Below are positions 817 through 26,954 of a stretch of DNA of 64,000 bases, piece by piece. Origin of the DNA: Bifidobacteriaceae bacterium (GTDB taxonomy: Bacteria > Actinomycetota > Actinomycetes > Actinomycetales > WQXJ01); contig JAITFE010000035.1 of NCBI GenBank assembly GCA_031281585.1, positions 7,183-71,182 on the forward strand, written 5' to 3'. Every line of letters begins with the position of its first letter. The first letter of the stretch is position 1. The translations under genes and the position numbers were made by a program. Under the pieces are notes generated by a model, which made no database searches, was not told where the DNA came from, and saw only the letters and a list, made by a program, of their open reading frames with translations.

Positions 817-819
817 CGG

Positions 820-3825: not shown

Positions 3826-4037
3826 GGGACCAGCTGATAACCGGCCTCGTCGACGGCGGCGGCGACGGCGGCATGGTCCAAAGGGGCGGCCGAGGTGACG
3901 GACAGGGTCGAGGTCGCGCTGGGCGCCAGGTCGACTTCAACGCCGGTGACCCCGGGCAGCGCGCCGACCTCTTCTTTGACTGCCTTGACGCAATGCTCGC
4001 AGGTCATACCCTCGACCTTGTAGGTGGTGACGGTCAT
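3822..4037 (-). CDS. copZ: Heavy-metal-associated copper chaperone
   Basis: This 71-aa protein has MTCEHC in a [19 protein letters not shown] context. It is translationally coupled to copA. Confidence 0.9.
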
Positions 4038-4095
4038 GATGCCTCTCCTCGTGTCGTTCGCGTCAGCGCTTTCCGCCGCGCCTCAGAAGTCCTGG

Positions 4096-5526
4096 TCAAA
4101 GGTATTCCCCGACCAGTTCCTCAGCCAAGCCCGTGTAAGTCGCCGGGCTGAGCTCCCGCAAACGCAGTGTCACATCCGGCGGCAGGCCAAGGCCGGCCAC
4201 GAACTCGCCGATCTCATCCAGCGACACACGGCGCCCGCGGGTCAGTTCTTTCAACCGCTCGTACGGGTCGTCCATTCCCGGCACGCCGGCTATCGCGGCC
4301 GCCCGCATGGCGGACTGGATCGGTTCGGCCAGGACCTCCGGATTTGCGGCCAAGTCGGCCGCGATCGGCTCCGGGTTCACGTCCAGCCCGTCCAGGCCCC
4401 TGCGGAGGTTGTCGATCGCCAGCAGTGAATGGCCCATCGCCACCCCAATGTTCCGCTGCGTGGTCGAATCGGTCAGGTCGCGCTGCAGGCGGGAGGTCAC
4501 CAACGTGGCGGCCAACGTGTCGAACAGCGCGCCCGAGATTTCCAGGTTCGCCTCGGCGTTCTCAAACCGGATCGGGTTGACCTTGTGGGGCATGGTCGAG
4601 GATCCGACCGTGCCCTGGCCGCGCGCCTGCGCGAAATAACCCAGCGAAATGTACGTCCACATGTCGGTGGCCAGATTGTGGGCGATCCGCCCAAAACGGG
4701 CCAGGTCGGAATACAGCTCGGCCTGCCAATCGTGGGACTCGATTTGCGTGGTCAGCGGATTCCAGGTGAGGCCCAGGCGGTCCTCCACGAACTCGCGGCT
4801 GATTCTTGGCCAGTCGGCGTCCGGGACGGCGGCCGTGTGGGCGCCAAAGGTGCCGCTGGCGCCGTTCAGCTTGCCCAGGTACTCCGCGTTCTCGATCCGC
4901 CCCAACTGGCGGCGCAGCCGCGTCACGGTGACGGCCAACTCCTTGCCCAGCGTGGTCGGCGTGGCCGGCTGCCCATGCGTGCGCGCCAGCATGGCCAGCC
5001 CGGCATGCTCAAGAGCCAGCAGGCTCAGGTCCGTGACCAGCGCGCGGGCGGCTGGCACCCACACGTCCTCCACACCGCCTTGGATAACCCAGGCGTAGCT
5101 CAACGAGTTGACGTCTTCGCTGGTGAGCGCAAAATGAATGACCGGGTTCAAAGCTGGCGTGAGGACCGTGTCCGGGCCCAACACTGCGGCCGCGTCCGCC
5201 AGGCGGCGCTGCAGGAAGTACTCGACCGCCTTGACGTCATGGACCGTTTGCCGCTCAATCCCGGCGAGTTCCGCGATCTCCCCGGGACCGAAGTTCTTGG
5301 GCAGGCTCCGCAGGTAATCGCGGTCGGCTTCGCTAAGGCTGGGGGCGCCGGGAAGCACCTGCTGGTCCAGCAAATAGATGAACCACTCCACCTCGACCAG
5401 GAGCCGGGCCCGGTTGAGCGCCGCCTCGGAGAAGTAGTCGAGCAGCGGGGCGGTGGCCCCGGCGTAGCGCCCGTCCAGGGGGCTGAGAGTCAGGCGGGGC
5501 TCAAGCGCGGCAAAGGAGATTGGCAC
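4096..5526 (-). CDS. purB: Adenylosuccinate lyase
   Basis: The 476-aa protein has the N-terminal LSPLDGRYA motif and fumarate-lyase signature-like blocks (GSSTMPHKVNP). Confidence 0.93.
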   Translation of the reverse strand: MPISFAALEPRLTLSPLDGRYAGATAPLLDYFSEAALNRARLLVEVEWFIYLLDQQVLPGAPSLSEADRDYLRSLPKNFGPGEIAELAGIERQTVHDVKAVEYFLQRRLADAAAVLGPDTVLTPALNPVIHFALTSEDVNSLSYAWVIQGGVEDVWVPAARALVTDLSLLALEHAGLAMLARTHGQPATPTTLGKELAVTVTRLRRQLGRIENAEYLGKLNGASGTFGAHTAAVPDADWPRISREFVEDRLGLTWNPLTTQIESHDWQAELYSDLARFGRIAHNLATDMWTYISLGYFAQARGQGTVGSSTMPHKVNPIRFENAEANLEISGALFDTLAATLVTSRLQRDLTDSTTQRNIGVAMGHSLLAIDNLRRGLDGLDVNPEPIAADLAANPEVLAEPIQSAMRAAAIAGVPGMDDPYERLKELTRGRRVSLDEIGEFVAGLGLPPDVTLRLRELSPATYTGLAEELVGEYL

Positions 5527-5696
5527 GGCCCAAGTTTAGAGGGCCTGCCAAAGGCAGGCCGCCGCGACTGAGCGTGGCGCGGAGGACGGCGCGGCGGGAG
5601 GTGCAGTGTGGCGCCGGGGGAAGGCGCGGCCCGCAGGCCCGTCGGCCTTGAGGCCCGCCAAAGGCGCCGCGTGCGGGCCCGTTTGCCGGGCGAGCC

Positions 5697-6116
5697 CTAC
5701 TTGTCCTTGCCCGCCACGGTGGCCCAAGCCTGCAGGGCCAGGAACGTGCCGCTCAGGAGCAGACCGGGGAGCAAAAAGGCGTCATACACCACGGCGGACT
5801 TCTGCGGGTAGTCCACTATCAGCGCCACGATCAGCGCGATCAGGCCGATAGCGGTCAAGGCGCCGCCAACCGCCAGGAGCAGGATTCCCCAGACGCCGCC
5901 CGCCAAACTGGTGGACTGCCGGGGCTGGGGCGCGTATGGCGCGTAAGGCTGCGGCCCTGTTTGCTGGTACGCCGGTGGCGGGTATGAGCCCTGCGGCTGC
6001 GGTTGGGCCGGCGGCGCGGAAGGCGCCGCCGGAGGAGCCGGGGGCGGCGGCGAATAGTTCTGCGGTTGGGATTGATACTGGGGCTGGTCCGAAGGATTGG
6101 TCATGGCTACCAACAT
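5697..6116 (-). CDS. Hypothetical Pro/Gln-rich membrane protein
   Basis: About 70 aa of PQ/Y-rich N-terminus is followed by two hydrophobic helices (GILLLAVGGALTAIGLIALIVALIV; FLLPGLLLSGTFLALQAW). An alternative ATG lies at 6104. Confidence 0.5.
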   Translation of the reverse strand: MLVAMTNPSDQPQYQSQPQNYSPPPPAPPAAPSAPPAQPQPQGSYPPPAYQQTGPQPYAPYAPQPRQSTSLAGGVWGILLLAVGGALTAIGLIALIVALIVDYPQKSAVVYDAFLLPGLLLSGTFLALQAWATVAGKDK

Positions 6117-7129: not shown

Positions 7130-7423
7130 GTGATTCCAAACGCGGCCTGGCAGCCAACCCCGTGTTCGGGTTGGCACACGCTTGAGTTGTTGGACCGCTA
7201 CCGCTCCGCGCTGGTCGGCGTCGTGGCCGGCCTGCGCCAAGCCGCGCCCCTGATCAACCTGGCCGACCCGGCGGGTTGGCGCTCGCCTGCGGCGGACGCC
7301 TACCTTGAGCGGCTGGAGGACCTGGAGCGGCGGTGCCGCGTCGGGGCGTGTCACGCCGAAGACACGTTGGCGCAGGTGAACGGTTACCGGGCGATGGTCG
7401 CACACCGGATGGGTCTGGCATGA
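7130..7423 (+). CDS. Small helical hypothetical protein, possibly WXG100-like
   Basis: The protein is 97 aa with a central W50-R-S-P-AADAYLERL motif at the midpoint, as in WXG hairpin proteins. Its stop overlaps the next ATG (ATGA at 7420-7423). Confidence 0.4.
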   Translation: MIPNAAWQPTPCSGWHTLELLDRYRSALVGVVAGLRQAAPLINLADPAGWRSPAADAYLERLEDLERRCRVGACHAEDTLAQVNGYRAMVAHRMGLA

Positions 7424-8835
7424 GCGACGGCTCCATCAGCGTCTTCGGCGGTGCCGCGGGCGCCATCTCCTGCCTCCAAGACCTGGACGTCTTGGCTCTG
7501 CGGCTAGATTTGGCCAGGGCCAAAGCCGAAGAGGCCGACGCGGCCTCGCGTGTGGCTTGCGGAGCGAGCAGCCCGTTGCCGCTGACCAACAAGACTTTCG
7601 GAGTGGTTTGCGACCCGATTGAGCAGCAGGCCTACGCCTTGACGGGCGCTGCCCTGGAGGGCTTTTACCGACAGGTCGGCACCGGCCACCTGGTTGAGCA
7701 GTTGGCGGAGCTGTCCCGTCGGGTGCTGGCGGCGCAAACCGCCTACCAGCAGGCGGAGGAAGAGGCGGAGACGATGTTCGCCTCAATCCGCCATCCGGGC
7801 TTCAGCCTGGCCGATTGGATGCTGCCCTGGCCGTTCTCGGTGCTTGGGCGACTGGGCGGCTTGGCCATCAACGTGGCGCTGGACGCCGCCGGCCGTCTGA
7901 TCATCAATGGCGAGCCCCCGTCCTGGGCCGAGCTGCTGCGCTCGCACCATGAGGAGGTGCGCGGGGTCCTGGGTGCCGCCCTAAGCCCAACGCCGCTGTT
8001 CAGGACGCCATCGACCACCGAGGTGACCAGGGGAATCACCGGCGTGGCCACCATGGCCTACGGGCCGGGCCTGGATGTGACCATCACGCGGGGCAAAACC
8101 AAGCGGGACCGTCCGCCAACCGGGGTGGAGAGCCTGATCTGGCGCATCGCCGGCCTGGCGGACAACGACAAGTCCGACAGTCAGATCGGCGTCACCAAGG
8201 TCACCGCCCCCGACGGCTCGGTCAGCTGGCTGGTGTCGGTTCCGGGGACGCAGTCAATGAGCTTGGGTTCCGACCCCAACGCCAGCGACATGGGGACCAA
8301 CGTTCGGGCGGTCCCGGGCGACGTCAACGCCATGGGCTTGGCGGCCGCCGCCGCGATGATCGACGCGGGGATTAAGAAAGGCGAGCCGGTGGTGCTGAGC
8401 GGCCACTCCCAAGGCGGGATTGTGTCCGCGGCTTTGGCCGCCGACCCGGCCTTCGCCGAGCAGTTCTCGGTGGCGGCCGTTCTGACGCTCGGGTCGCCGG
8501 TCTCCCAGTTGAAACACTCCGGCTCGGCCCAATGGCTGTCGCTGGAGCACACCCAGGACATCATTCCCACGCTGTCCGGCGGCGGCAATCCGCGCGGCCC
8601 CAACCAGACCACAATTGTCCGCGACGTCAGCGGGGTCACCGACCCCGCGATTCGGGACGACGACATCCTGTGGGCCCACCATTTGCCGATCTACGCCGAC
8701 ACGGCCAAGCAGGTGGACCAGTCCGGGGACGGTTCGATCGAGGCCTGGCGGGAGGCGGCCAGCCCGGTCTTCGACCCGAAGGCCAAAGTGGAGACCACCG
8801 TCTACCAGGTCAAGCGCGACCTGCCCGCCTCTTGA
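7420..8835 (+). CDS. Alpha/beta hydrolase (putative lipase/esterase) with N-terminal helical domain
   Basis: A GHSQGG nucleophile elbow lies in VVLSGHSQGGIVSAALA, followed by LTLGSPVS. About 200 aa of helical N-terminal region precedes it. It is coupled to the upstream small ORF. Confidence 0.7.
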   Translation: MSDGSISVFGGAAGAISCLQDLDVLALRLDLARAKAEEADAASRVACGASSPLPLTNKTFGVVCDPIEQQAYALTGAALEGFYRQVGTGHLVEQLAELSRRVLAAQTAYQQAEEEAETMFASIRHPGFSLADWMLPWPFSVLGRLGGLAINVALDAAGRLIINGEPPSWAELLRSHHEEVRGVLGAALSPTPLFRTPSTTEVTRGITGVATMAYGPGLDVTITRGKTKRDRPPTGVESLIWRIAGLADNDKSDSQIGVTKVTAPDGSVSWLVSVPGTQSMSLGSDPNASDMGTNVRAVPGDVNAMGLAAAAAMIDAGIKKGEPVVLSGHSQGGIVSAALAADPAFAEQFSVAAVLTLGSPVSQLKHSGSAQWLSLEHTQDIIPTLSGGGNPRGPNQTTIVRDVSGVTDPAIRDDDILWAHHLPIYADTAKQVDQSGDGSIEAWREAASPVFDPKAKVETTVYQVKRDLPAS

Positions 8836-9348: not shown

Positions 9349-10407
9349 ATGACCAAAGTTCCGATTCGTCCCGCCGTCGCCGCGTTGCCGGCCTATCAGC
9401 CGGGCGCCCGGCCCTCCGGCCGGCTGGTCTACAAGCTTTCGTCGAACGAGTCGCCCTATCCGCCGCTGCCCGGAGTGATAGCCGCCGTGGCGGATTCGGC
9501 GGTCGACCTCAACCGGTATCCCACCATGTTGGCGGACGAACTGGTTGGCGCCGTGGCTCGTTTCCACGACTTGGAGCCCGGCCAGGTGGCGGTCGGGGCC
9601 GGATCCGTCTCCGTCCTGGCGCACATTCTGGCCGCCGTGGCCGGCGAATCGGACCGGGTCGCCTACCCGTGGCGCTCCTTCGAGGCCTACCCGATCCTGA
9701 CCGGCGTCACCGGCGCCCAATCCGTCCAGGTCCCGCTGGGCGCGGGCGGCCGCCTCGACCTGACGGCATTGGCCAAGGCCGTCGATGAGAGCACGCGGGC
9801 CGTTCTGGTTTGCTCGCCCAACAACCCCACCGGGCCGGCCGTCCGCCAGGACGAGTTCGACGCCTTCATGGCGTCAGTGCCGGACAGTTTGCTGGTGGTC
9901 CTAGACGAGGCGTACGTGGAGTTCGTGACGGACCCGGAGGCGGTGGACGGCATCGGCGGCTTGGCCAAACACCCCAACCTGGTGGTGTTGCGGACTTTCT
10001 CGAAGGCTTATGGGCTGGCCGGGCTGCGGGTCGGCTACGCGCTGGGACGGCCGCGCGTGATCGAGGCGATCCGGGCCGTGACAACGCCGTTCTCGGTTTC
10101 GGCGATGGCGGAGCTGGCCGCGATCACGTCGTTGCAACTGCAAGACGAAATGCGCCGAAGGGTGGCCGAGGTGGTGGCCCGCCGCGCGTTCATGTACGAG
10201 GGCCTGGTCGCGCAAGGCTGGGACCTGCCGGAGCCCCAAGGCAACTTCGTGTGGCTTGACCTGGGCGTGGACTCGGCGCCTTTCGCCGACGCGTGCCGGC
10301 GGGCGGGCGTGCTGGTGCGGCCCTTCCCCGACCAGGGCGTGCGCGTTTCGGTGGGCGAGCAAGAAGGCGCGGAACGCTTCCTTGAGGTGGCCTCGACCTG
10401 GGTGTAG
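9349..10407 (+). CDS. Histidinol-phosphate/aromatic aminotransferase (class II)
   Basis: The motifs LSSNESPYPP, CSPNNPTG and RTFSKAYGLAGLRVGY (PLP-lysine) are present. The ATG at 9349 follows the sequence GAAGGC. Confidence 0.88.
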   Translation: MTKVPIRPAVAALPAYQPGARPSGRLVYKLSSNESPYPPLPGVIAAVADSAVDLNRYPTMLADELVGAVARFHDLEPGQVAVGAGSVSVLAHILAAVAGESDRVAYPWRSFEAYPILTGVTGAQSVQVPLGAGGRLDLTALAKAVDESTRAVLVCSPNNPTGPAVRQDEFDAFMASVPDSLLVVLDEAYVEFVTDPEAVDGIGGLAKHPNLVVLRTFSKAYGLAGLRVGYALGRPRVIEAIRAVTTPFSVSAMAELAAITSLQLQDEMRRRVAEVVARRAFMYEGLVAQGWDLPEPQGNFVWLDLGVDSAPFADACRRAGVLVRPFPDQGVRVSVGEQEGAERFLEVASTWV

Positions 10408-10684
10408 GCGGCTAAGCGCCGTCCGGGACCGCGCCCTGCCGCCGGCGGCTCCCCGCTCCGGGGTGCCCCCGCGAGCTTCGCGGCGGCGCTTCGTGCGGTT
10501 CTTTTTCCGCGAGCGGGGCAGGTGCCCGCTCTCCGGCCCCGCCGACTGAAAAAAGGGCACGCGCCCCCACCCCCGACCGGGCGGAGACAACGTCAAGCGC
10601 CGTTTCCGCCCGGCCTTGTGTTGGCGATGCGGGAAGGACCGCCGGCAGATTCTCGCGACCGTGCAAGTCACGTACAATCGAAAC

Positions 10685-10966
10685 ATGTCGCCAGTGAGCG
10701 CCCGAACAAGCCGCTTCGAAGGTCGATTGGATCCAGAGTCTGATGAGGCCATCACCAAGGCGGCGAGGATAGTTGGCCAGTCCAAGGGCGCCTTCATGGT
10801 GGCTGCGGCACGCGCCGAGGCAGACCGCGTGTTAGGCCGGGCAGATGTCACGCTGATGCCCGCAGAGCAATTCGACGCCCTGGTGGCGGCACTGGATGAT
10901 CCGGGTCCCGTTCCGGAAGCGTTGGAGCGGGCCTTGAGGCGGCCGCATCGGGTTGTCCAGCGGTGA
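10685..10966 (+). CDS. tacA: DUF1778 (TacA-like) RHH antitoxin
   Basis: The 93-aa protein has RFEGRLDPESDEAITKAARIVGQSKGAFMVAAARAEADRVL, typical of DUF1778. It overlaps the downstream GNAT gene by 4 nt. Confidence 0.8.
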   Translation: MSPVSARTSRFEGRLDPESDEAITKAARIVGQSKGAFMVAAARAEADRVLGRADVTLMPAEQFDALVAALDDPGPVPEALERALRRPHRVVQR

Positions 10967-11466
10967 CAGCCTGGGTTTCTGAACGCGTCAACCGGGGTCA
11001 CGAACTCGATTCCTTCGATTGCGGCGTCACGGCGCTCAACGCGTGGCTCCGGCGGGACGCGCTTCGGGCCGACAGGCAGAACACGGCCCGGACCTATGTG
11101 TGGACCCAAGAGAACTCGACCATCGTTCGCGCCTACTACGCGATCGCTCCGACCACAGTTCGCAAGACCGGCGTGCCGCGGTCCGTCAGAGGCGGCCACA
11201 CGAACCTGCCCTCCTACTTGCTGGCGCGACTGGCGTTGGACCAGTCGCTGCAGGGGCGCGGCTTGGGCGCGGCTCTGCTATTGGATGCCCTCCGGAGAGT
11301 CGACGGCGCGGTCGCCCAGGCCGGTGGCCGACTGCTGGTGGTGGACGCCGCCAGCGCGGCCGCCGCAGACCTTTGCCGGCACTTTGGGTTCGTCCAGATT
11401 GGCGATTCCAACCGCTGCCACCTGCGTGCCAGCGTCATCCGAATGCTGTTGGCCCAGAGCCCCTGA
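10963..11466 (+). CDS. tacT: GNAT-family acetyltransferase toxin (TacT-like)
   Basis: FDCG...LNAWL, YYAIAP and RLALDQSLQGRGLGAALLLDAL (acetyl-CoA site) are present. The GTG start forms a GTGA overlap with the antitoxin stop. Confidence 0.8.
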   Translation: MTAWVSERVNRGHELDSFDCGVTALNAWLRRDALRADRQNTARTYVWTQENSTIVRAYYAIAPTTVRKTGVPRSVRGGHTNLPSYLLARLALDQSLQGRGLGAALLLDALRRVDGAVAQAGGRLLVVDAASAAAADLCRHFGFVQIGDSNRCHLRASVIRMLLAQSP

Positions 11467-11525
11467 AGTCCGCCACGGCTCCTCGCGGCGAGCGGTTCGC
11501 CAGCCGTTGTCGTGGCGGCCAGTAC

Positions 11526-11963
11526 CTACCGGTCGGGTTGGGGCGCCTTCGCGGCGGGTCGCCAGGCGGTCTTGCGTATCCATGTCCAGGTGACGCCCGA
11601 GCCGATTAGGACCGGGCCCGCGCCGCCCACCAGAGGCCGGCCGTTTGACAGGGCGAGCAAGAGCGTTCCGCCCCCGGCGCACAGCGCGCCAATCCCGAAC
11701 AGCTTGGACAGCCCAGCCTTGGCGCCGCGCGCCACCAGCAGCGCCGCGGCGAACGAGCCGACCGCCAGCGTTCCGAGCATGACCCCGGCTTCCCGAGGGC
11801 TCAGCCCGAACTCGTGCGTGAACAGCGAATACGAGAGCAGGAGCACGGTGGACAACGCCAGTGTCGCGAACACGTCCACGACCAGGAGCGCCTCGAACAC
11901 GGGCACGCGGAAAATGACCAACCCGGCCACGACCGGGGAGGCGACGGACGCGACCGACCGCAC
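11526..11963 (-). pseudogene. Probable C-terminal fragment of an MFS transporter
   Basis: A 145-aa ORF made of 3-4 hydrophobic helices with no N-terminal half. It sits inside the island. Confidence 0.35.
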
Positions 11964-12187
11964 GGACGAGTCGAGTCCGGCGAACCGGATCAGCCCGGCC
12001 TCGTCCCGTCTGAACGCCTCGGCACGAAGCGCTGTCGGCCCTCACTTAGGGTCGGGTGTCGTGTCCCCAGGTTGTTCATGGATCGCCGTAACCCGGTTGG
12101 CCCATGGGCGGTGTGGGGCTGGTCTCCCGGAAGCTGACGCCGGCTGGTGAGTGGCAGAGCGTCGCGGTTCACGGTAAGACAGACTGC

Positions 12188-13492
12188 ATGATGAGCAGGC
12201 GCGGCAAGAATCCACCCGCTGTACCCAAGTCGGGAGTGGACGGTTCGCTCACGCCCCACAAATGGCTGCTCGCCGGGGCCATAGCGACTGCGCTGGTCGG
12301 CCTGGGCGTCGCAGGCGGTGTGTTCTTCGCGCTCCGGTGGGCCTTCCCCTCCCCGGTTGGAGTTAGTGCCGACGAGTGGCTCTACAACCTGGTGAGATCG
12401 ACCATTGCCGCAGTCGGGGTGCTGACTGGGGGCGGGGCGGCGTTCATCGCCTATCGGCGCCAGCGCTCTATTGAAGCTCAGAACAAACTCGACCAAGCGC
12501 AGAACCGAATTGACCAAACTCGATCGGAAACCGACCGGTATGCCCGCGCGGTCGACCAACTCGGCAACCCTGCCGCCGCGATCCGACTGGGCGGTATCTA
12601 CGCCCTGGAGCACCTGGCGAAAGACTCGACGCCGAATCAGCAGATGATCGTGGAGGTACTTGCTGGCTTTACGCGCAACCGCATGGCGGAAACTGCGGAA
12701 ACCCATTGGCAAAGGGAGGATGTGTCAAATGGCCCAATCACAGCCTGCTGCGAACCGACCCACGAAGCACTTGCGAGAATCCCAACGGACGTCAAAGCGG
12801 CCCTTACTGTCCTCTCGCGTCTGGCCAGCAAACGCGGCGCACCCCCGGGTGATTTGAGCCACGTCAGTCTGTCAAGAGCCGACCTGCCCGAGTTCACGAT
12901 CGCGAATTTGAACCTATTCGGTGCGGACTTGCGTGAAGCGAACCTGCGCGGGGCGGACCTTTCCCGATCAAGTCTCCGCAATGCCAACCTGATGCGTGCG
13001 GATCTGTCCCACGCGTGTTTGGGCGGCGCGGACTTGTCGCGCGCTGATGCGGGTGGGGCGAACCTGCGCGAAGCGGACTTACGTGAGGCAGACCTGCGCG
13101 AAGCGGATCTGCACGGAACGGACCTGCGGCGTGCGAAGTGTTCCCGCGCCAACATGAGCGGTGCGGGCCTGGGCGGCGCGAATCTGGCCCGGGCGGACCT
13201 GGCCGGGACGGACCTGACCGGCGTAAGCTTGCGCGGCGCAAGACTTCACCAGGCGGATCTGACCGGCGCGGATCTTCGTGGCGCGAACCTCACACAGGCG
13301 GATCTCGCTGACGCGGTTTTGGCTAACGCCGACTTTGCCGGTGCGGATATGGCCGGTGCAAACTTGGCGCGGGTGGCGCTATCTGGGGAGCAGGCGGCGT
13401 ATGCGCGCACGCGACATGCCTTAAACGTGTTGGATGACGCCGAATCCCTTCCCGGCCCCACGGTTCCCGCGAAACAACGAGCAACCGATTGA
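12188..13492 (+). CDS. Membrane-anchored pentapeptide-repeat protein
   Basis: It has two N-terminal TM helices and a linker with LGNPAAAIRLGGIYALEHLAKDS. About 200 aa of A(D/N)LxG-type pentapeptide repeats follow (ADLREANLRGADLSRSSLRNANLMRADL...). The ATG pair is at 12188/12191. Confidence 0.85.
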   Translation: MMSRRGKNPPAVPKSGVDGSLTPHKWLLAGAIATALVGLGVAGGVFFALRWAFPSPVGVSADEWLYNLVRSTIAAVGVLTGGGAAFIAYRRQRSIEAQNKLDQAQNRIDQTRSETDRYARAVDQLGNPAAAIRLGGIYALEHLAKDSTPNQQMIVEVLAGFTRNRMAETAETHWQREDVSNGPITACCEPTHEALARIPTDVKAALTVLSRLASKRGAPPGDLSHVSLSRADLPEFTIANLNLFGADLREANLRGADLSRSSLRNANLMRADLSHACLGGADLSRADAGGANLREADLREADLREADLHGTDLRRAKCSRANMSGAGLGGANLARADLAGTDLTGVSLRGARLHQADLTGADLRGANLTQADLADAVLANADFAGADMAGANLARVALSGEQAAYARTRHALNVLDDAESLPGPTVPAKQRATD

Positions 13493-13733
13493 CGCAAGAC
13501 AAGTCGGGCTTTGCCCGCGGACAGCCGTCGCTGTGTCATCTGCCTTGGGGGCTTTGCCTTGCTGGCGCTGTTTCCCCGCTACACGGCCGCAGTTCGCCGC
13601 TCCGTTGATCGCCCACCGACGCCCGCGGTCGGTCGGCGGCCTGCTGAGCAGGAACCGGCCTGATCTCCGGCGCTCCCGCTTCGGCGTGCCCGGCACTCTT
13701 GGTTGCGGCGCTGGCGGCAAGACGGGTTTGATT

Positions 13734-15197
13734 GTGCTCGTGGAAAAGGTGTTGATCTTGCCGGGGATCGGGGCTTCGTGTCTTGAGCCGGCGGATGGAC
13801 GGTGGCGTTTCGGTCCTGGTCTGCCGGCGGGAGCGGTGATCAGCCCGGACCGTCTAGCGCTGGCCGATGACAACCCGCTCCAACCGGTCGGAGTCCTCAA
13901 TCGGTGCATCGGCGTGCAGCATTTGGCCGTTGTGCCGGGCTACGATCTGCTGGCGCGGAGGATGAGCAAAGCAGGGGTTGCTGGGCGGGCTACTGTGGCC
14001 AAGGGTCCGAACCCCGCCGACGATTTCGACCGGCAAGCGCAGGTGATTATTGTCCCGTACGATTTCCGGCGCTCAAACGCCGAGTCGGCCCGATGGCTGG
14101 CGCGAGTTGTGAACGAGTGCCTTTCGAGCGAGGACCATGTCACAGTGGTGGCTCATTCGATGGGGGGCTTGGTGGCCAGCTATTGGTTTGCGGTGCTTGG
14201 CGGTTGGCGGCGTTGCCGCAGCCTGATCACGGTCGGCACACCTCATCGGGGCGCTCCCAAAGCGCTCGATTGGCTGGTCAACCCGACGCGGTCGCCACTG
14301 CGCCGACCGGCCGTAACAGAGGTTTTCCGGACCTGGGACTCAATGTGGGAACTGCTGCCGGACTATCCCATGTTGGAGTCTGACGGACAGTGGCGGATTC
14401 CGGCCGAGGTGCCGAATATCGACGACTTGACATTCGATGGTTTCGGGCGGCGGGCGCGGCGGGCGTTGAAGTTTCATCGGATGCTTGACAGCGCCTGGCG
14501 GGACTTGGACCTTGAACAGCAGCGCAAGCTCACTTGTCTGCTGGGGTTTGGGCACGCGACGCCTTCGTCGGCGGGCGTACGTGGATCGGGCGGCCGATTG
14601 AGGCTGGCGATTTCCAATCAACCGCCTCCCGCGCAAGTCGACGGTCCTGTGCTTCACGGCGGGGACCACACCGTCCCGCATTACTCATCTTGGATAGAGG
14701 TCGACCAGGTGATGCCTGAGACCTTGCCGGACCGACATGCGCCCCTTTGGAACACATCGGCGGTCGCCTCGAAGGCCTTGGCGCCTCTCGTCCCCCGGCT
14801 CGGGCATGTTCGCGGCGAGCCGGCGGCCCGGCCGGGGTGGGTGTTGGATACCGACCTACCGGATGAGCTGCCGTTGGGTCAGGCCCAACAAATCCGCGCC
14901 AAGGTTGGCCGCAGTTCGCATTGTTCGAGCGGCGGTGTGGCGCCACTCGGGTCTGGTAACCCCAGCGAAAAAGCGGAAGGACTGGAAGGATCTGCCGCGC
15001 AACTGGAAATATGTCGTGTGAATCCGGCGTCCCAGCCGTGCATCGTCAACCTGTGCGCCGACGGTCAGGGTCGTTGGAGAGGCGAGTTTCCCGCGCTGCG
15101 TGACGAGGGTGTCTACTTGGTCACCTGCCGCGTCGCTGCGGGGAGTAACCTGATCGAAGACACGCAACTGGTGGTCGCCATTCCCGCGCCCGAATAG
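13734..15197 (+). CDS. PGAP1/LCAT-like alpha/beta hydrolase (putative lipase/esterase)
   Basis: VTVVAHSMGGLVASYW (GxSxG), ITVGTPHRGAPKA and HGGDHTVPHYSS (Asp/His region) are present. The start is uncertain (GTG at 13734, 13740 or 13749). The ORF upstream to 13434 is Arg/Pro-rich and likely non-coding. Confidence 0.7.
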   Translation: MLVEKVLILPGIGASCLEPADGRWRFGPGLPAGAVISPDRLALADDNPLQPVGVLNRCIGVQHLAVVPGYDLLARRMSKAGVAGRATVAKGPNPADDFDRQAQVIIVPYDFRRSNAESARWLARVVNECLSSEDHVTVVAHSMGGLVASYWFAVLGGWRRCRSLITVGTPHRGAPKALDWLVNPTRSPLRRPAVTEVFRTWDSMWELLPDYPMLESDGQWRIPAEVPNIDDLTFDGFGRRARRALKFHRMLDSAWRDLDLEQQRKLTCLLGFGHATPSSAGVRGSGGRLRLAISNQPPPAQVDGPVLHGGDHTVPHYSSWIEVDQVMPETLPDRHAPLWNTSAVASKALAPLVPRLGHVRGEPAARPGWVLDTDLPDELPLGQAQQIRAKVGRSSHCSSGGVAPLGSGNPSEKAEGLEGSAAQLEICRVNPASQPCIVNLCADGQGRWRGEFPALRDEGVYLVTCRVAAGSNLIEDTQLVVAIPAPE

Positions 15198-15260
15198 CAG
15201 CGGGATCTGCGGTGCCAGCGCATCATCACAGCCCCAAGATCAGAGCGGAGCACCGGCCCC

Positions 15261-18200
15261 ATGAACGCTTCGGATTCCACGCACGGGAGCGGCGCTTGGC
15301 CGCCTTGGAACCCTGACCACCCGCTCGACCTTGCGCGTTACGTGTCACCTGTCACCGTGCGCAGCTTGGCCGGCGCTGCCCGAGCCGGGCGCGCAGGCCT
15401 GCCCGGGAGCGAGCAAGGCAGCGCACGACTAGACCGGGCGCGGGAATGCTTCGACGGCTTGCGATCAGTCGAGATTCGCTACGCTGATGAGCGTTTTCGG
15501 GTCGATTCCCGCCAAGACATAGCGACGCCGTGGGAATTGCTGCACGCGCTGAAGCGAGGCAACTGCCTCGACGTGTCGCTGATCTACGCGGCTGCCTGCC
15601 TGGACGCCCGGCTACACCCCTGGCTGGTGGTGGTTGAATCCGCTGACCAGGACGCTCAGCACGCCTTGGTGCTGGTTGACCTCCTGGCGGACTGGCCACC
15701 GAATGAGATTGAATGGGTTGAACGGGCCGATCGCTTGGTATTGGATGAGCCGCCTGCTGGCCTACTCGAACAAGTCCGCTCCCAGCCTGGCGCGGTCATG
15801 GCCCGTTGGCTGCCGGTCGATGTGGCCACCATGCTGCGCCGTCGGGGCGCTGAAGGCCAGTCCGGGGACTTCGAGCGTGCGGTGGAGCGGGGCCGGGAGT
15901 ACCTAAATGAAGGTTGGCGCTGGTTGTCGGGCGTCGACATCGGGCGCGGCTTTGACCCTGAACAGTGCCACCTCAATGTCGAACCCCCGGCTCGATCACC
16001 GATCGAAGCGCCTTACCGGGAAACGGAGCAGTTCAGCCGCTGGGTGGAGCGCGGAGACCTCAGGCTGTTCGACCCGCGGCGACCGCTGGTGCCGTTTGTC
16101 GACCGGCCCGAATACGGCACGCTGCGGGATTTCTTCGCCGAGCCGGCCGAGGCGGACAAATCGTTGCTTCGCGTGGCGGTGCTTTACGGGCCGGGCGGCG
16201 CAGGGAAGACCCGGCTGGCCTCGGAACTGGCGGACGATCTGAGCCGGTGCGGCTGGCTGACGGGATTCGCGCGCGAAGACTCCGCCATTGAGCAGCGCGA
16301 ATGGCTCTCCTGGACTACGGCGAACCTCCTGGTCGTGGTGGACTACGCGGAGGCCTCGGACGTGCTGAGCGGCTCGGGGCGCTCTCTAGTGGCTATCCTG
16401 GGCGAACGACCTGTCGGCACCCGCACATGCGTCTTGCTGACGTCTCGTCATCATTCAGACAACTTTCAGGCGACAGCCGAGTGGTGGGACACAATCCGCA
16501 AGTCGCTTACGGAGACCCCGGCGGCCACCCCCATGTCGGTTCCTTTGCCAGCCCGTCTGAGTTCACACCGTTCGCTGTTCCGACGTGCGCTGAGGGCCTT
16601 CGCGGGCCAGGGAGGCGCTTCTGACCGTCAGTGGGAAGTCGACCCGGGATGGTCGGCTCTGGAAATCATGCTGGCAGCTTGGGCCGCGAGCCGCCCGGAT
16701 GCGCCAGCCGCCCGCCCATCGCGTTCCGAGTTGTATGACACGGTGATCGACCACGAATTGGAGTACTGGCGGCGAACGCTGGACACTACCTTTGACTTGC
16801 GAGTCCCGATCGGTTTGCTCAGGGAAGTCGCCGCCTGCATCGCGTTGACGGCACCCAAAACGAGCCGCCTGCGGTTCCTCCTTGAATCCTGCACCGCCCT
16901 GCGCGGGCAGGCAGTGGTGGAGCGCAAACTGGCGGTGGCCTCCGCCATGGACGCGCTGCTGACAGAGCAGGCGGGCGGGGAACACGGGAAACCCGAGTTG
17001 GCGCAGTGCTCGTGGCGTGGACCAGCCCTCGGCTCGGACACCTCCGGTCTTTCCATCCGCCCCGATCGTGTGGCTGAACGCCTCGCCCTGGACGTGTTCT
17101 ACGCCGACCTTCAACAGGACCGGACGGGCTCTGCGGGCGAAGACAGCGAGCCGCTGATCACCCGGCTGCTCGCTCGAACCAATGACGCTGAGCGGTCAAC
17201 CGCCTTGATGACGATCCACCGCATGGCCGAATCAGACTCAGTCGCCGCCGCCCGCCTAGCCCAGGCTGTCTTGGCCACCGACCCAGGCCGCTGGCGAGAA
17301 GCCTTCGAAATCGCGTTACAAGCCGGTGGTCCCTTCGCGTCGGCGTTGGAGCGCGTCGCCACGGACAGCCCGGACCAGCTTCCGATGGAGCAAATCGCGA
17401 ACGAGATTCCCCAGGGCCATGCCTACCTGCGTCAGTTGGCCCTACTCGGCCACATGGCGGCCAACCGCGACGAAAGGGAATATGACGACGCTCGCCGCGC
17501 GAAAGCCAGCCTTGAACGTGCGGTGCGGCTAGCCGACGTCGGCTCACGTACAGAAGCGGTACAGGTGGCCCGCGAGGCGCGTGACCTGTATGCCCGGTTG
17601 GCCGAGGCGAACCCGGCGGCGTTCTTGCCGAACTTGGTTGACGTCACTTGCAACTGGATGCGAATGCTCGGCGGTGACCTTTCGCTGGTCAACATGGGGG
17701 CCCTCATGGGCGGCCTAGCTCCCGGACCGGCTGCCGAATTGTTGGTGCTTTGCGGCGCCAGGTTTGCGGATTCTGGCTCACGCACCACTGTCAGCTGGGG
17801 TTTTCTTAGCCTGGCCATTGATTTAGCATCCCGCGAAGCGGACCCGATGTGGGCGGCCCGGTCACGCCAGGTTGTCAGGGCGGTCTCCAGCCAACTCCGC
17901 CTTGATCCATCCTCAATCGCTCCAGACGATCCGCCGGCCTGGCTGGTCGCCACGATTGACGAGCGGACAGTGGCCGCCTTGGAAGCTTGGGCAAGCGAGG
18001 CGACCTGGAGCCGCCGGGCGGAACTGATCCTCGACCAGGCCGGTCCTGTTTTCAACGATGCCGCGACGCTCGAGGCGTTGAGCCAGCTCCACCCTGACCA
18101 GCGGTGGCTTGAGGCGCTCATCGCGCTCAAGCAGCCCTTCGAAGAAGGCAGCCTTCGGGAGACGCTCAAGGGATTGGTTGAACAAGAAGCGGCCGTCGCG

Positions 18201-18794
18201 TTGCTTAATGGCTGGTTCAGGACGGAGTCTTGGGCTGACTCCGAAGAGTACTTGAAGCGCCATCGGCAGGAACTCGACTCGCCGACCGCCCGGCGTGTGC
18301 TGGCCGAACTCGCGAGCAACCACACTGATGAACCGTCGCGGATCACGCTGGAAGCCACTCGCCATTTGGGTATCTTGACGCTGCTGGACGCGGGTGTAGC
18401 CGCAGCCGATGTGTATGACATGGTCGAAGACCGATCGACCGCATCAGACCGTGCCATGAACGCCCTTCGGCAAGCCGACGGCGGCATGTTGGTCGCTATC
18501 GTTATGGCGGCGCCGGCCGTCGGCGTTCCGGGGACGCTGACCGGCGCACTTCTGCCGCTCGCGTTTACCTGGTTGTTGCCCGGCGATGGACACGAAACAG
18601 ACGATGAGGCAGAGACTCCTGGCGGTCCCCGCTTGACACCGGAAGCGATCGCGGAAACGATCAGACCCGACCGCGCGCCTATCGCGATCTCCACCTTGAG
18701 GCACCTGATCAAAGCGAGACCGGACCTGGCCCCAAGGATCGAGCCCTACGTCGCCGCATTGGTCGGCGCAAGCGTGGAGCCAGTCAGTGAATGA
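15261..18794 (+). CDS. Transglutaminase-like domain / P-loop STAND-type NTPase / helical-repeat protein (1177 aa)
   Basis: Cys102 (KRGNCLDVSLIYAAAC), His134 (DAQHALV) and Asp140 (LVDL) are spaced like a transglutaminase/papain-like core. Walker A is GPGGAGKT (aa 310-317) and Walker B is LLVVVDYAE (about aa 356-364). About 800 aa of helical TPR-like C-terminus follows. The ATG has GGAG upstream. Confidence 0.8.
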   Translation: MNASDSTHGSGAWPPWNPDHPLDLARYVSPVTVRSLAGAARAGRAGLPGSEQGSARLDRARECFDGLRSVEIRYADERFRVDSRQDIATPWELLHALKRGNCLDVSLIYAAACLDARLHPWLVVVESADQDAQHALVLVDLLADWPPNEIEWVERADRLVLDEPPAGLLEQVRSQPGAVMARWLPVDVATMLRRRGAEGQSGDFERAVERGREYLNEGWRWLSGVDIGRGFDPEQCHLNVEPPARSPIEAPYRETEQFSRWVERGDLRLFDPRRPLVPFVDRPEYGTLRDFFAEPAEADKSLLRVAVLYGPGGAGKTRLASELADDLSRCGWLTGFAREDSAIEQREWLSWTTANLLVVVDYAEASDVLSGSGRSLVAILGERPVGTRTCVLLTSRHHSDNFQATAEWWDTIRKSLTETPAATPMSVPLPARLSSHRSLFRRALRAFAGQGGASDRQWEVDPGWSALEIMLAAWAASRPDAPAARPSRSELYDTVIDHELEYWRRTLDTTFDLRVPIGLLREVAACIALTAPKTSRLRFLLESCTALRGQAVVERKLAVASAMDALLTEQAGGEHGKPELAQCSWRGPALGSDTSGLSIRPDRVAERLALDVFYADLQQDRTGSAGEDSEPLITRLLARTNDAERSTALMTIHRMAESDSVAAARLAQAVLATDPGRWREAFEIALQAGGPFASALERVATDSPDQLPMEQIANEIPQGHAYLRQLALLGHMAANRDEREYDDARRAKASLERAVRLADVGSRTEAVQVAREARDLYARLAEANPAAFLPNLVDVTCNWMRMLGGDLSLVNMGALMGGLAPGPAAELLVLCGARFADSGSRTTVSWGFLSLAIDLASREADPMWAARSRQVVRAVSSQLRLDPSSIAPDDPPAWLVATIDERTVAALEAWASEATWSRRAELILDQAGPVFNDAATLEALSQLHPDQRWLEALIALKQPFEEGSLRETLKGLVEQEAAVALLNGWFRTESWADSEEYLKRHRQELDSPTARRVLAELASNHTDEPSRITLEATRHLGILTLLDAGVAAADVYDMVEDRSTASDRAMNALRQADGGMLVAIVMAAPAVGVPGTLTGALLPLAFTWLLPGDGHETDDEAETPGGPRLTPEAIAETIRPDRAPIAISTLRHLIKARPDLAPRIEPYVAALVGASVEPVSE

Positions 18795-18895
18795 GCCACA
18801 ATCATCGGCTCCTGTAGGTAGTTCCGGGCGGTCAGCCCTCAGGCCTGAAAGGAGAGCACCCCAATCCGAACCGACGGCCCTCCCCGTCTCCCAAG

Positions 18896-18916
18896 GGCCG
18901 GGCGGCCGGTTTTTTG
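18896..18916 (+). terminator. Possible intrinsic terminator after the NTPase gene
   Basis: A short GC stem, CCGG-gcgg-CCGG, extendable by G-U pairs, is followed by TTTTTT. It lies about 100 nt after the stop at 18794. Confidence 0.4.
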
Positions 18917-19473
18917 CGCATGCGCTCCATGAGATTGACTTTGACCTTCTGCCGCTCTATGGCACCACACTCAAGGCCGCGCTTCGGAAGCTCCCTCCTG
19001 CGAAACCGGCCCTGACCCCCGTGCCGATCAAGCCCATAGGGCTGACGCCCGCCCCAATAGACCCTTGGGACAGCGGTACCCGCCCGGCAAGTCCTCGCGC
19101 AGAACCGCGCGTGGAGTCCGAGCGCATTCGCATCACGTCGTCATATCTCATCAACAGTTCCGGCGCGACCCAATCTCCCCAAAGCCACGAGTTCGTCGCA
19201 GTACCACCGGTCGCGACACCGTTCGCTGACACGTCCTGCCTGATCGTGAGCGGCCACATAACCTGGATGGCCGCCACCTTTTCGCGGAAGCGGCCCAAGC
19301 AGCCTGTTGCCAAGTGGAGTCAATCTCTCCGGGCAACGCCCAATACTCTCAGGGCCATCCACAGGCATCCGTGCAGGCGGAATCGCGATAGCGCGGTGAA
19401 AAGGGGATTGTGCTATCGACTCGGCGAATCAACGGTCCCAACCAACCAAACAGGCGCCCGAGACATCACAGTG

Positions 19474-19546
19474 CGCGCCTGAAGGGATTCGAACCCCCAA
19501 CCTTCTGATCCGTAGTCAGATGCTCTATCCGTTGAGCTACAGGCGC
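19474..19546 (-). tRNA. tRNA-Arg (anticodon ACG)
   Basis: The reverse complement GCGCCTGTAGCTCAACGGATAGAGCATCTGACTACGGATCAGAAGGTTGGGGGTTCGAATCCCTTCAGGCGCG folds as a cloverleaf. The acceptor is GCGCCTG/CAGGCGC, the anticodon stem TCTGA/TCAGA, the loop CTACGGA and the T-loop TTCGAAT. CCA is not encoded. Confidence 0.92.
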
Positions 19547-19735
19547 ATTTGGCCCTTCGGGGGGAAGGGCCGAGGGGACAGTCTACCTGGCGCCTTGACC
19601 ACGGGCAAACGGACGGCGGGCGGCACCCGTGCCAATGCGCGTGACGGGGACGACATCCACCGGACCCTCGAGGTCGGCGAAATCGTCTGGATTGGTTGTG
19701 TCCAGGGGCAGACCGCGCACCCCGGCGGCCAGAGA

Positions 19736-22065: not shown

Positions 22066-23739
<1,674 letters not shown>

Positions 23740-23965: not shown

Positions 23966-25255
<1,290 letters not shown>

Positions 25256-25418: not shown

Positions 25419-26954
25419 ATGCGTGATGCCGTCGCCAAGGCCGCCGTTTCCCCGTCCGCTGCGCCGGGCTCGGGCGGCCAGCCGGTCCCCATCCAACCCC
25501 CGCCCAAGGCGCTGCGCATGCCCAGGGACGGGATCGACCCCTTGGTGATTGGGCGGCGGATCAGATTCTTCCGGCTCCAAAAGGGGCTCAAACTGGAGGA
25601 ACTGGCGGCGGTGGCGGGGCGGGCGGCATCGGGCATATCGGCGATCGAAAACGGGCTGCGGAGCCCCACGCTGGCGCAAATCGGGGCGATCGCGGCCGCG
25701 TTGGGGGTGGCCCCACGGGCCCTGTTCGACCCGAGCCCGCCCACCGAAAGGGACGCCCTCGAAATCGAATGGGAGCGGGTGCAGCGGGACCCGGCCTACG
25801 CGGCGCGCGGGCTGCCCAGGGTGAAGGTGACCCGGACGACCTCGCCGGAGGTGCTGGAGGCGCTGGTCGGATTGTCCCGCGAGCTTTACCGCGTGCGGGA
25901 GGAAAGGGTGGCCACGCCGGAGGAGGCGCGGCGCGCGAACGCCGCCTTGCGCTTGGAGATGCGGGAACAGGACGACTACTTCCCGGAGCTCGAACGGGCC
26001 GCCGCCCGGCTGCTGGACCTGGCCGGGCATGAGCCGGGCGAGCCGATGAACCAGGCCGACCTGGCCACTTTGACCGGCAAGCTGGGGTTCGAACTGCGGT
26101 TCGTGGACGATCTGCCGCAGACCACGCGGTCCGTGCTGGACACCAAGCGCCACCGGCTCTACCTGCCCCGGCAAGCGGAGGCGGTCACCGGCGACCACCG
26201 GTCTACGGTGCTGCAGGCGCTCGCCTCGCATGTGCTGGGGCACGGTGAACCGGAGGACTACATGGCGTTCCTGCGCCAGCGCGTGGAGGCGAACTACCTG
26301 GCGGGGGCGGTCTTGATGCCGGAAAGCGCGGCGGTGCTGGCGCTGGGGAGCGCCAAGGCGCGCCGTGCGCTGGGAATCGAGGAGTTCCGGGACGCGTTCA
26401 CCGTCTCCTATGAGATGGCCGCCCACCGGTTCGTCAACCTGTCGACCCGGCACCTGGGGATCCGGGTGCACTTCGCCAAGGTCCACTCCTCCGGGGTGAT
26501 CCACAAGTCCTATGAGAACGACGGGTCGCTGTTCCCGACCGACCCCCTAGGGGCCATCGAAGGCCAGTTCATGTGCCGCTACTGGGCGGGCAGGACCGTG
26601 TTCGAGGCGTCCCGGCCGCGAGATCGTTACTGCCAATACACCGACACCCCGCGCGGGACGTTCTGGGCCACCGCCCACTTGAAGCAAACGCGGGACGGGA
26701 TCTTCTCGGTCTCAGTTGGGTGCCGCCTTGAGGACGCCAAATGGTTCGCGGGCGCGGACACGCGCGTCCGCATGCGCTCCGACTGCCCCGACCCGTCCTG
26801 CTGCGCCACGCCCCCCGCTGACCTGGCCGAAGAGTGGGAAGGCTGGGCCTGGCCGGCGGCGCGCCCGCACTCCTCGGTGCTGGCGGCCATGCCCACCGGG
26901 GCGTTCCCGGGCGTGGACCTGACGGACGTGTACGAGTTCCTAGAACGCCAATGA
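25419..26954 (+). CDS. XRE-family HTH regulator with C-terminal ImmA/IrrE-like plus ScfR-type domain (RamB-like)
   Basis: The HTH is IGRRIRFFRLQKGLKLEELAAVAGRAASGISAIENGLRSPTLAQI. The long C-terminal domain and divergent position from icl match RamB-type regulators. An alternative ATG lies at 25518. Confidence 0.8.
   Translation: MRDAVAKAAVSPSAAPGSGGQPVPIQPPPKALRMPRDGIDPLVIGRRIRFFRLQKGLKLEELAAVAGRAASGISAIENGLRSPTLAQIGAIAAALGVAPRALFDPSPPTERDALEIEWERVQRDPAYAARGLPRVKVTRTTSPEVLEALVGLSRELYRVREERVATPEEARRANAALRLEMREQDDYFPELERAAARLLDLAGHEPGEPMNQADLATLTGKLGFELRFVDDLPQTTRSVLDTKRHRLYLPRQAEAVTGDHRSTVLQALASHVLGHGEPEDYMAFLRQRVEANYLAGAVLMPESAAVLALGSAKARRALGIEEFRDAFTVSYEMAAHRFVNLSTRHLGIRVHFAKVHSSGVIHKSYENDGSLFPTDPLGAIEGQFMCRYWAGRTVFEASRPRDRYCQYTDTPRGTFWATAHLKQTRDGIFSVSVGCRLEDAKWFAGADTRVRMRSDCPDPSCCATPPADLAEEWEGWAWPAARPHSSVLAAMPTGAFPGVDLTDVYEFLERQ

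Follow-up and report, generated by a model that had tools for sequence, protein, structure and literature searches.

The window analysed here is a 64,000-nucleotide stretch of high-GC, actinobacterial DNA from contig JAITFE010000035.1 of a Bifidobacteriaceae bacterium (assembly GCA_031281585.1), and our interest centred on two adjacent genes on its + strand. The upstream gene encodes a lipase-type hydrolase, and the downstream gene encodes a large protein in which a transglutaminase-like (TGL) domain, a STAND-type NTPase and a long C-terminal region follow one another (Table 1). Both open reading frames (ORFs) had been placed in the same positions by a first-pass annotation of the window, which had also listed the AHSMGG, GTPHRG and GGDHTVP motifs of the hydrolase, the 63-nt gap between the two ORFs (15197 to 15261), and the Walker A and Walker B motifs of the large protein; all of these were verified. 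The products of the two genes are 100% identical to the hypothetical proteins LBC97_03785 (STAND protein) and LBC97_03780 (hydrolase) of an NCBI metagenome-assembled genome (MAG) of Bifidobacteriaceae, and homologues were found down to E values of 1e-157 and 4e-48, respectively. Given the identity to the MAG proteins and the many homologues, we consider both ORFs to be real genes. Alignments of the STAND homologues begin at query residues 12-20, and the ATG (M1) at 15261 is therefore better supported than the start chosen by NCBI, which lies at L67. Similarly, the hydrolase homologues start a few residues ahead of the LPGIGGS strand, which fits the GTG at 13734; the alternative start given by NCBI is 13686 (503 aa).

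Table 1. Features of the two-gene locus and of the neighbouring pentapeptide gene (window coordinates).
Feature	Position (nt)	Strand	Residues	Basis
LCAT/LPLA2-like alpha/beta-hydrolase gene (lipase/phospholipase-type)	13734-15197	+	487 aa	ORF from GTG at 13734
Nucleophile elbow AHSMGG	14151-14168 (Ser142, 14157-14159)	+		H141-S142-M143-G144-G145 invariant in 34 homologues
GGDHTVP with predicted triad Asp311	14658-14678 (Asp311, 14664-14666)	+		G310, D311, T313, V314, P315 invariant
Predicted triad His335	14736-14738	+		Invariant
Predicted disordered linker with candidate cleavage site Arg360-Gly361	14799-14831 (Arg360-Gly361, 14811-14816)	+	356-366	pLDDT <50
C-terminal beta-sandwich (Ig-like) domain	14838-15182	+	369-483	AlphaFold2 model, all-beta
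Gene for TGL-peptidase/nSTAND5 NTPase/C-terminal sensor protein (predicted)	15261-18794	+	1177 aa
Divergent TGL cysteine peptidase domain (predicted)	15294-16115	+	~12-285	Conservation; profile and structure matches
Catalytic candidates C102, H134, D187, plus Q85	15564-15566 (C102), 15660-15662 (H134), 15819-15821 (D187)	+
nSTAND5-type P-loop NTPase module	16116-16940	+	286-560	Walker motifs; PF25199 of homologues
Walker A GPGGAGKT	16188-16211	+	310-317
Walker B LLVVVDYAE	16326-16352	+	356-364
Presumed C-terminal sensor region	16941-18791	+	561-1177 (617 aa)	Alignment to TPR arrays and C-termini of homologues
Pentapeptide gene	12104-13492	+	462 aa	Hydrophobic N-terminal segment, long repeat domain, Pfam Pentapeptide E 4e-60

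Based on its sequence and its predicted structure, the hydrolase is an LCAT/LPLA2-like, lipase-type enzyme with a putative Ser-Asp-His triad. It scored above the Pfam cutoffs for LCAT (PF02450; 38.7 bits against 21) and PGAP1 (27.1 bits against 24.3), which bears out its earlier description as PGAP1/LCAT-like, and a profile search of the PDB returned lipases, lysosomal phospholipase A2 (LPLA2) and PGAP1. The AlphaFold2 model of the protein (predicted local distance difference test [pLDDT] 79, predicted TM-score [pTM] 0.81) had LPLA2 (4x92) as its top Foldseek match (E 1.5e-11, TMt 0.61). Other matches included Legionella PlaB and the lipase BlEst2 in its propeptide form, the latter of which indicates that lipases can occur both in a propeptide form and in a shorter, mature one. 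S142, D311, and H335 are invariant in 34 hydrolase homologues, in an order and at a spacing that we take to resemble those of LPLA2. An LCAT match above the gathering threshold, a GxSxG elbow and a Ser-Asp-His triad are what membership in this family calls for, and all three were found. Unlike LCAT and LPLA2, however, the window hydrolase is bacterial, is presumed to be cytoplasmic, is operon-linked, and carries an extra C-terminal Ig-like domain.

In the model, an alpha/beta core (aa 1-355) is joined by a low-confidence linker to a C-terminal beta-sandwich, for which the Foldseek sub-matches were Ig-like and macroglobulin domains and the PDB profile search gave a weak filamin-type match (2ds4, E 0.049). 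Conservation of R360 and G361 reaches at least 90% in the hydrolase alignment, although both residues lie in the segment that is predicted to be disordered. In a wider set of sequences, V-R-G is found in most nSTAND5-linked hydrolases, whilst H, K, Q or another residue occupies the Arg position in more distant ones. Judging from the model, both the exposed linker, with its conserved R-G, and the additional C-terminal domain could plausibly be features of a zymogen. The window also contains a second PGAP1-like ORF, of 500 aa (7333-8835, + strand), with a marginal score (24.4 bits against a cutoff of 24.3); we rejected it as a relative of the hydrolase on the basis of BLASTP (E 0.14).

The N-terminal domain of the large protein had been proposed to contain a transglutaminase- or papain-like core comprising Cys102, His134, and Asp140, within the motifs GNCLD (aa 100-104) and QHALVLVD (aa 133-140). 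In an alignment of 13 family members (25-46% identity to the query), Q85, C102, D104, H134, and D187 are invariant, whereas D140 is not conserved. Cys102 and His134 of the proposed triad are thus retained, but the role of the acidic member falls to D187 (in WLPVDV) rather than to D140. The Gln, Cys and His are likewise invariant in all 40 TGL domains compared across sensor types, with one Asp column (unmapped) being kept in 39 of the 40. In an AlphaFold2 model of the domain (pLDDT 77, pTM 0.78), a helix begins at C102, and H134 and D187 lie on successive strands. Foldseek matches of this model in the PDB were weak (best E 1.7e-3, TM 0.2-0.35), and most were to transglutaminase-fold thiol enzymes, namely vasohibin-1 (VASH1), LapG, CPR-C4, 3isr, 3kd4, TglA, PeiP/PeiW, TgpA, PNGase and arylamine N-acetyltransferases. 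When the PDB was searched with a profile of the family, the CPR-C4 protease was matched at E 0.29, its Cys and His aligning with C102 and H134. Pfam detected Transglut_core (PF01841) in eight of the 13 family members (best E 4.6e-5) and DUF553 in seven, and one relative (L035) scored 23.2 bits against a cutoff of 23 for PF01841; the Pfam scan of the window protein's own TGL domain gave no match.

Conservation, profiles, the Pfam matches of relatives and the model all point the same way as the initial proposal of a transglutaminase-like domain with Cys, His and Asp, and we conclude that this is a strongly divergent TGL cysteine peptidase domain with putative peptidase activity. With known TGL cysteine peptidases (BTLCP/LapG, vasohibin, CPR-C4; PF01841, DUF553), it shares the Cys-His-Asp order and, in the model, a Cys where a helix begins and a His and an Asp on successive strands, but it is very divergent from them, has an insert of ~45 residues between the His and Asp strands, and is presumably cytoplasmic and fused to an NTPase, whereas theirs are periplasmic or secreted. 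Used on its own to search 1.84 billion representative proteins, the TGL domain found 356 clusters at 50% identity, in which it is always N-terminal, in proteins of up to ~1900 aa. A lead to antiphage_ProA in NCBIfam (aa 83-126, E 0.008, 13.6 bits against a cutoff of 1500) was dropped; a literature search on it gave nothing relevant.

The central domain is, by its sequence, assigned to the STAND-type NTPases of the nSTAND5 kind. A STAND NTPase is expected to have a Walker A (GxxxxGK[ST]) and a Walker B (hhhhD) motif, and both are intact. The Pfam matches to nSTAND_NTPase5 (PF25199; 21.4 bits against a cutoff of 34) and AAA_16 at aa 285-428 were sub-threshold. We retrieved 125 homologues of the STAND protein, and most of those listed carry precomputed PF25199 together with TPR_10/TPR_12 arrays; the PF25199-bearing homologues align over aa 12-800, with E values down to 5.5e-157. 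As in the STAND family, the NTPase would be expected to drive oligomerisation in a nucleotide-dependent manner. In distant nSTAND5 relatives, the TGL domain is replaced by Trypsin_2 or TIR_2. Such swapping of effectors is typical of STAND conflict proteins.

The C-terminal 617 aa gave no match in Pfam, which likewise detected no TPR. The repeat-like character that had been ascribed to this part of the protein is therefore borne out for a single TPR-like unit only (aa 754-805), which aligns to the 46-aa TPR units that form long arrays in homologues. It is followed by a conserved C-terminal module of ~370 aa (aa ~806-1177) that can be aligned to homologues. The lengths of close homologues (P0005-P0096, which are mostly metagenomic, the named ones being from Schaalia, Actinomyces, and Pauljensenia) form a ladder with steps of 46 aa (1156, 1202, 1248 ... 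1748), and 49 of 100 long homologues are congruent modulo 46, which indicates that single TPR units are rapidly gained and lost, much as happens in immune receptors that diversify. In the window protein and its closest relative (P0003), nearly the entire array has been lost. By analogy with Avs and other STAND proteins (PMC13581612), the C-terminal region may serve as the sensor. The hydrophobic stretch reported near aa 1076-1106 is present (aa 1075-1106, Kyte-Doolittle 1.83) and belongs to the conserved C-terminal module. We rejected it as a membrane anchor, as most homologues have no comparably hydrophobic segment in the aligned region.

The two genes are strictly conserved as a pair, and their proximity is not due to chance. 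An LCAT/PGAP1 gene lies immediately upstream, and on the same strand, in five of five STAND homologues (Nocardia, Schaalia, Kitasatospora, and two metagenomes), and in three of these loci the two genes overlap by 4 nt. As a reciprocal test, one genome per GTDB species was scanned with a profile of the hydrolase, and the ORFs of the resulting 80 loci were searched with custom hidden Markov models (HMMs). A TGL domain is encoded downstream in 34 of the 35 loci with a hydrolase HMM E value of <1e-60 and at least 1 kb of downstream sequence, although this count, and the E-value bins behind it, are partly circular, because the HMM was built from TGL-linked hydrolases. In all but one of these loci, the TGL ORF starts 0-73 nt after the hydrolase ORF. 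The co-occurrence of the two genes in other genomes, which the first-pass annotation had expected of a genuine module, is thus seen from both directions. No third gene is conserved beside the pair in the related loci.

The NTPase and sensor part of the large protein is swapped between loci. The nSTAND5 NTPase is included in 27 of the 34 TGL-positive loci, and in the remainder the TGL domain is fused to nSTAND1 plus WD40, NB-ARC plus TPR, NACHT (in one case with HEAT and NCC-H), TCAD2 or VMAP-M2. The loci with a swapped NTPase/sensor part include some from Cyanobacteriota and Chloroflexota, and on a Rhizobium conjugative plasmid the hydrolase gene overlaps a TGL-NACHT gene by 1 nt. As the TGL domain and the hydrolase are kept whilst the NTPase and sensor change, the conserved unit is the TGL peptidase plus the hydrolase, carried on an interchangeable chassis. 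In line with this, pairwise distances of the hydrolases and the TGL domains correlate (r = 0.87), and none of 2000 permutations in a Mantel test reached this value. Streptomyces and its relatives commonly carry the pair, as does the Actinomyces/Schaalia/Pauljensenia group; the distribution of the pair is patchy, crosses phyla, and includes plasmids.

Two of the related loci have surroundings worth recording. In Schaalia odontolytica (CP133472.1, 5481-14013), the cassette lies between two His_Phos_1 genes (encoding 223 aa upstream and 160 aa downstream), and may have been inserted into, or beside, a duplicated gene. The copy in Nocardia sp. KC 131 (570-6008 and 16052-18682) is found among genes for EACC1, DUF6301, toxin-deaminase, SMI1_KNR4, and WXG100 proteins and a transposase, which is a polymorphic-toxin or conflict neighbourhood.

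More distant hydrolases of the same family (E 1e-34 to 1e-45 against the hydrolase HMM) adjoin TPR-CHAT or NACHT/nSTAND1(-WD40) proteins. One such partner, at locus L050, is a TPR-CHAT protein (CHAT E 2.8e-61). The NACHT/nSTAND1(-WD40) partners have N-domains of ~300 aa with invariant WxGHG and AC (mostly DAC) motifs, which Pfam did not recognise (loci L053-L058, L060, L068, L072, and L076). A profile of these N-domains matches the CHAT protein 8tl0 in the PDB (E 0.002), and hhalign against the TGL profile gave a probability of 1%; by their sequence, they look like an unmodelled caspase-like family. Since two unrelated thiol-protease folds alternate beside homologous hydrolases, proteolysis is the property that the partners have in common, and this alternation is our main argument for proteolytic licensing of the lipase.

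The general class to which such an arrangement would belong is established. Caspase-like domains in NTP-dependent conflict systems always have a neighbouring alpha/beta-hydrolase gene, and TGL peptidases only rarely occupy the same position (Kaur et al., 2020; PMC7159879). In one such module, a caspase-like protease cuts its partner, an alpha/beta-hydrolase zymogen, between R and G at two sites, and the fragments are toxic (Evans et al., 2025, preprint; PMC12642450). Like these modules, the window pair and its relatives combine a thiol protease on swappable STAND, VMAP and WD40 sensors with an adjacent alpha/beta-hydrolase gene, and protease and effector co-evolve; a protease on variable sensors with a dedicated, adjacent and co-evolving effector gene is the pattern described by Evans et al. 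(PMC12642450), and it is what we find. The two are further tied together by the distant homologues of the window hydrolase that adjoin CHAT/caspase-like STAND proteins. Unlike the protease of the caspase modules, that of the window has a predicted transglutaminase-like (papain-type) fold, and falls outside of the caspase superfamily. The hydrolases also differ, in that those of the window family are ~460-490 aa long with a C-terminal beta-sandwich, whereas the ~33-kDa LcHydrolase is cut at R73 and R117 (PMC12642450); cleavage is predicted for the window module.

A comparable layout, with an N-terminal effector, a STAND NTPase and a C-terminal repeat sensor, is found in Avs and other bacterial NLR-related proteins (PMC13581612; 10.1101/2022.07.19.500537), which the window protein also resembles in the TPR-type repeats of its close relatives and in the swapping of effectors among its distant ones. 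It departs from Avs in that its NTPase is of the nSTAND5 type and the effector function would be divided between a peptidase fused to it and a lipase with a gene of its own, and no Avs or bNACHT model gave a match in PADLOC or NCBIfam. Effector domains of the TGL/BTLCP kind on STAND and NACHT proteins have already been catalogued (PMC8195603; bioRxiv 10.1101/2022.07.19.500537). The supplements of PMC8195603 contain TGL/BTLCP architectures but not a TGL domain paired with an LCAT-like hydrolase, and we found no description of this pair in the searchable texts and supplements of a limited library; literature searches gave no relevant paper on “nSTAND5” and nothing specific on BTLCP, NACHT and lipase. 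Evans et al. mention trypsin-, caspase-, and subtilisin-like (and Lon) proteases, with no transglutaminase- or papain-type protease in the searched portion of the text (PMC12642450). The term “undescribed”, which had been applied to the whole module, therefore holds only for the specific pairing of a TGL peptidase with an LCAT-like hydrolase, since peptidase-STAND proteins with an adjacent alpha/beta-hydrolase are a known class (PMC7159879, PMC12642450).

Reasoning by analogy with that class, we favour, with confidence that is evenly balanced, the reading that the pair constitutes an NTP-dependent conflict module, self-contained and horizontally mobile, which most likely serves in abortive infection or defence and in which a STAND-activated TGL peptidase licenses a lipase. 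It is probably a switch of the known general type, through which a protease triggers cell suicide or defence. In this scheme, the C-terminal region of the STAND receptor would recognise a trigger, the nSTAND5 NTPase would then drive nucleotide-dependent oligomerisation, and the oligomer would gather and activate the N-terminal TGL peptidase through Q85, C102, H134, and D187. The dedicated substrate of the peptidase would be the product of the translationally linked upstream gene, with the LCAT/LPLA2-like lipase being made as a latent pro-enzyme. A cut, for which Arg360-Gly361 in the linker before the beta-sandwich is the best candidate site, would free or remodel the catalytic domain. The freed enzyme might then attack membrane lipids and cause cell death or arrest, by analogy with the caspase/alpha-beta-hydrolase zymogen modules.

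We advance more tentatively, and with some doubt, a broader proposal, namely that TGL-fold peptidases are an unrecognised class of bacterial executioner-licensing proteases, whose substrate would be an LPLA2/LCAT-like zymogen from which an Arg-Gly cut removes the Ig-like domain, and that the two-gene cassette moves among nSTAND5, nSTAND1, NACHT, NB-ARC and MoxR-vWA chassis in Actinomycetota, Cyanobacteriota, Chloroflexota, and Pseudomonadota. The gating of effectors by proteases is emerging as a dominant principle in prokaryotic immunity, and if the proposal is true, a papain/transglutaminase-fold protease and a phospholipase-type zymogen would join the list of such modules, for which the cited papers describe trypsin-, caspase-, subtilisin-, and Lon-type proteases. 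The module is widespread and experimentally tractable, and as a compact two-gene system it would lend itself to studies of the way in which the oligomerisation of a STAND protein activates a thiol protease other than a caspase.

Strict linkage and co-evolution fit a physical interaction of any kind, and the two proteins could instead be independent effectors, with the TGL peptidase cutting host or invader proteins directly (as do LapG, vasohibin and Lit-type enzymes) and the lipase being recruited or allosterically activated by the oligomer, uncut. The R-G site is not universal, and the TGL/BTLCP domains on STAND and NACHT proteins were catalogued without mention of a hydrolase partner (PMC8195603; 10.1101/2022.07.19.500537), both of which would suit this alternative. 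However, partners of two unrelated thiol-protease folds, TGL and CHAT/caspase-like, with proteolysis in common, are found beside homologous hydrolases, and cleavage of a partner hydrolase has experimental precedent (PMC12642450); we think two independent effectors rather unlikely. The TGL domain might also not be a peptidase at all; it could covalently modify the lipase or a target protein, as a transglutaminase, deamidase or acyl-transferase, or serve as a non-catalytic adaptor, given that transglutaminases, PNGase, arylamine N-acetyltransferases and the inactive Rad4/XPC share the fold. These stand lower in the Foldseek list, however, whereas the best-ranked neighbours in structure and sequence are the proteases VASH1, LapG, CPR-C4, and 3isr; the invariant Gln, Cys and His, with an Asp in 39 of 40 domains, speak against an inactive adaptor, and CHAT/caspase-like proteases fill the same position in sister systems. 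A TGL domain without protease function is, in our estimation, very unlikely.

Whether the pair serves in conflict at all can be questioned, as the flanking genes are mostly of the housekeeping type, no enrichment in defence islands was seen, known defence models do not match, and not all STAND clades are defence-associated (198 of 589 are; PMC13581612). A STAND-regulated switch for lipid or envelope remodelling, or for development, of actinobacteria would fit these facts. Such a role is nevertheless quite unlikely in view of the patchy, cross-phylum and partly plasmid-borne distribution of the pair, its atypical composition and the nearby tRNA gene in this window, the rapid variation of TPR number among close relatives, and the interchangeable NACHT, VMAP, TCAD2, and nSTAND1-WD40 cores, which are parts of conflict systems according to the cited work (PMC7159879). 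A STAND NTPase followed by a long, non-catalytic C-terminal region also recalls MalT and AfsR, and the large protein might be a MalT/AfsR/LuxR-type transcription factor with the hydrolase as its regulated neighbour, which the first-pass annotation had named as an outcome that would overturn its view. We saw no HTH, GerE, BTAD or SARP domain in the protein or among the domains listed for 120 homologues, which excludes a MalT/AfsR-type regulator, and the protein begins with an enzyme-like TGL domain whose triad is invariant. We put the chance of a transcription factor close to nil.

Several observations weigh against the conflict-module reading that we favour. The call of the TGL fold rests on weak scores (Foldseek E 2e-3 or worse, and TM and Pfam results as given above), the co-occurrence count carries the circularity of an HMM made from hydrolases known to lie beside TGL-STAND genes, and some TGL-paired hydrolases lack the R-G dipeptide, Arg being replaced by H, K, Q, L, and others. 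PADLOC-DB v2 gave no significant match, with similarity at the level of the P-loop only (IetA, E 0.0024; AbiLi, E 0.041), and in NCBIfam 20.0 no family was above cutoff for either protein; the earlier statement that the pair matches no named defence system is thereby upheld. The module is absent from the phage and prophage records of INPHARED and IMG/VR. Genes flanking the module in the window are housekeeping genes (aminotransferase, GNAT, dCTP deaminase, glyoxylate shunt), and the 135 genes flanking 37 related loci are mostly ordinary metabolic or regulatory genes, a few of which match defence models (restriction-modification, mads, PycC, and IetS). The predicted enrichment beside known defence genes was thus not clearly seen in this census, which was crude and had no background control. 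Of the idea of an NTP-dependent defence or conflict module, the STAND NTPase and the conserved hydrolase partner stand, whilst a defence function is something that we infer by reasoning.

In the window, the pair lies within a block (12104-19546) that looks like a tRNA-associated genomic island. GC content at third codon positions (GC3) is 0.70-0.74 for the pentapeptide, hydrolase and STAND genes (12104-18794), compared to 0.84-0.91 in the flanking genes sampled, and a tRNA-Arg(ACG) gene (19473-19546, - strand) has its 3′ end facing the block, which ends ~680 nt before it. The atypical GC3 and the adjoining tRNA gene suggest horizontal acquisition. No direct repeat of the 3′ end of the tRNA-Arg gene was found in 10400-19700, and no integrase was found either, so the case for an island is made by GC3 and the neighbouring tRNA gene. 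The pentapeptide gene at the upstream end of the block had been considered as a possible member of the module. It has no homologue in 85 related loci and none beside the five STAND homologues, and we therefore place it outside of the module; it is probably separate cargo that shares the low GC3 of the island.

Between the stop codon of the STAND gene and the tRNA-Arg gene (18795-19472, ~680 nt), there is no convincing gene; the ORFs at 18787-19482 (+ strand) and 18957-19313 (- strand) have no family matches. An GGCCGGGCGGCCGG-TTTTTT element at ~18897-18920, ~100 nt past the STAND stop codon, is below the threshold of the terminator scan and may be a weak terminator. Promoter and terminator scans of 11400-19600 gave nothing beyond the expectation from shuffled sequence. 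Elsewhere in the window, ARAGORN reported a 92-nt tRNA-Leu(CAA) at 4660-4751 (+ strand), which is probably a false positive, as it lies inside an adenylosuccinate lyase gene (4096-5526, - strand). Finally, genes for malate synthase (22066-23739, - strand) and isocitrate lyase (23966-25255, - strand) are found beside a divergent gene for an HTH_3/Peptidase_M78-type regulator (25419-26954, + strand); a genome labelled as Bifidobacteriaceae would be an unusual place to find a glyoxylate shunt.

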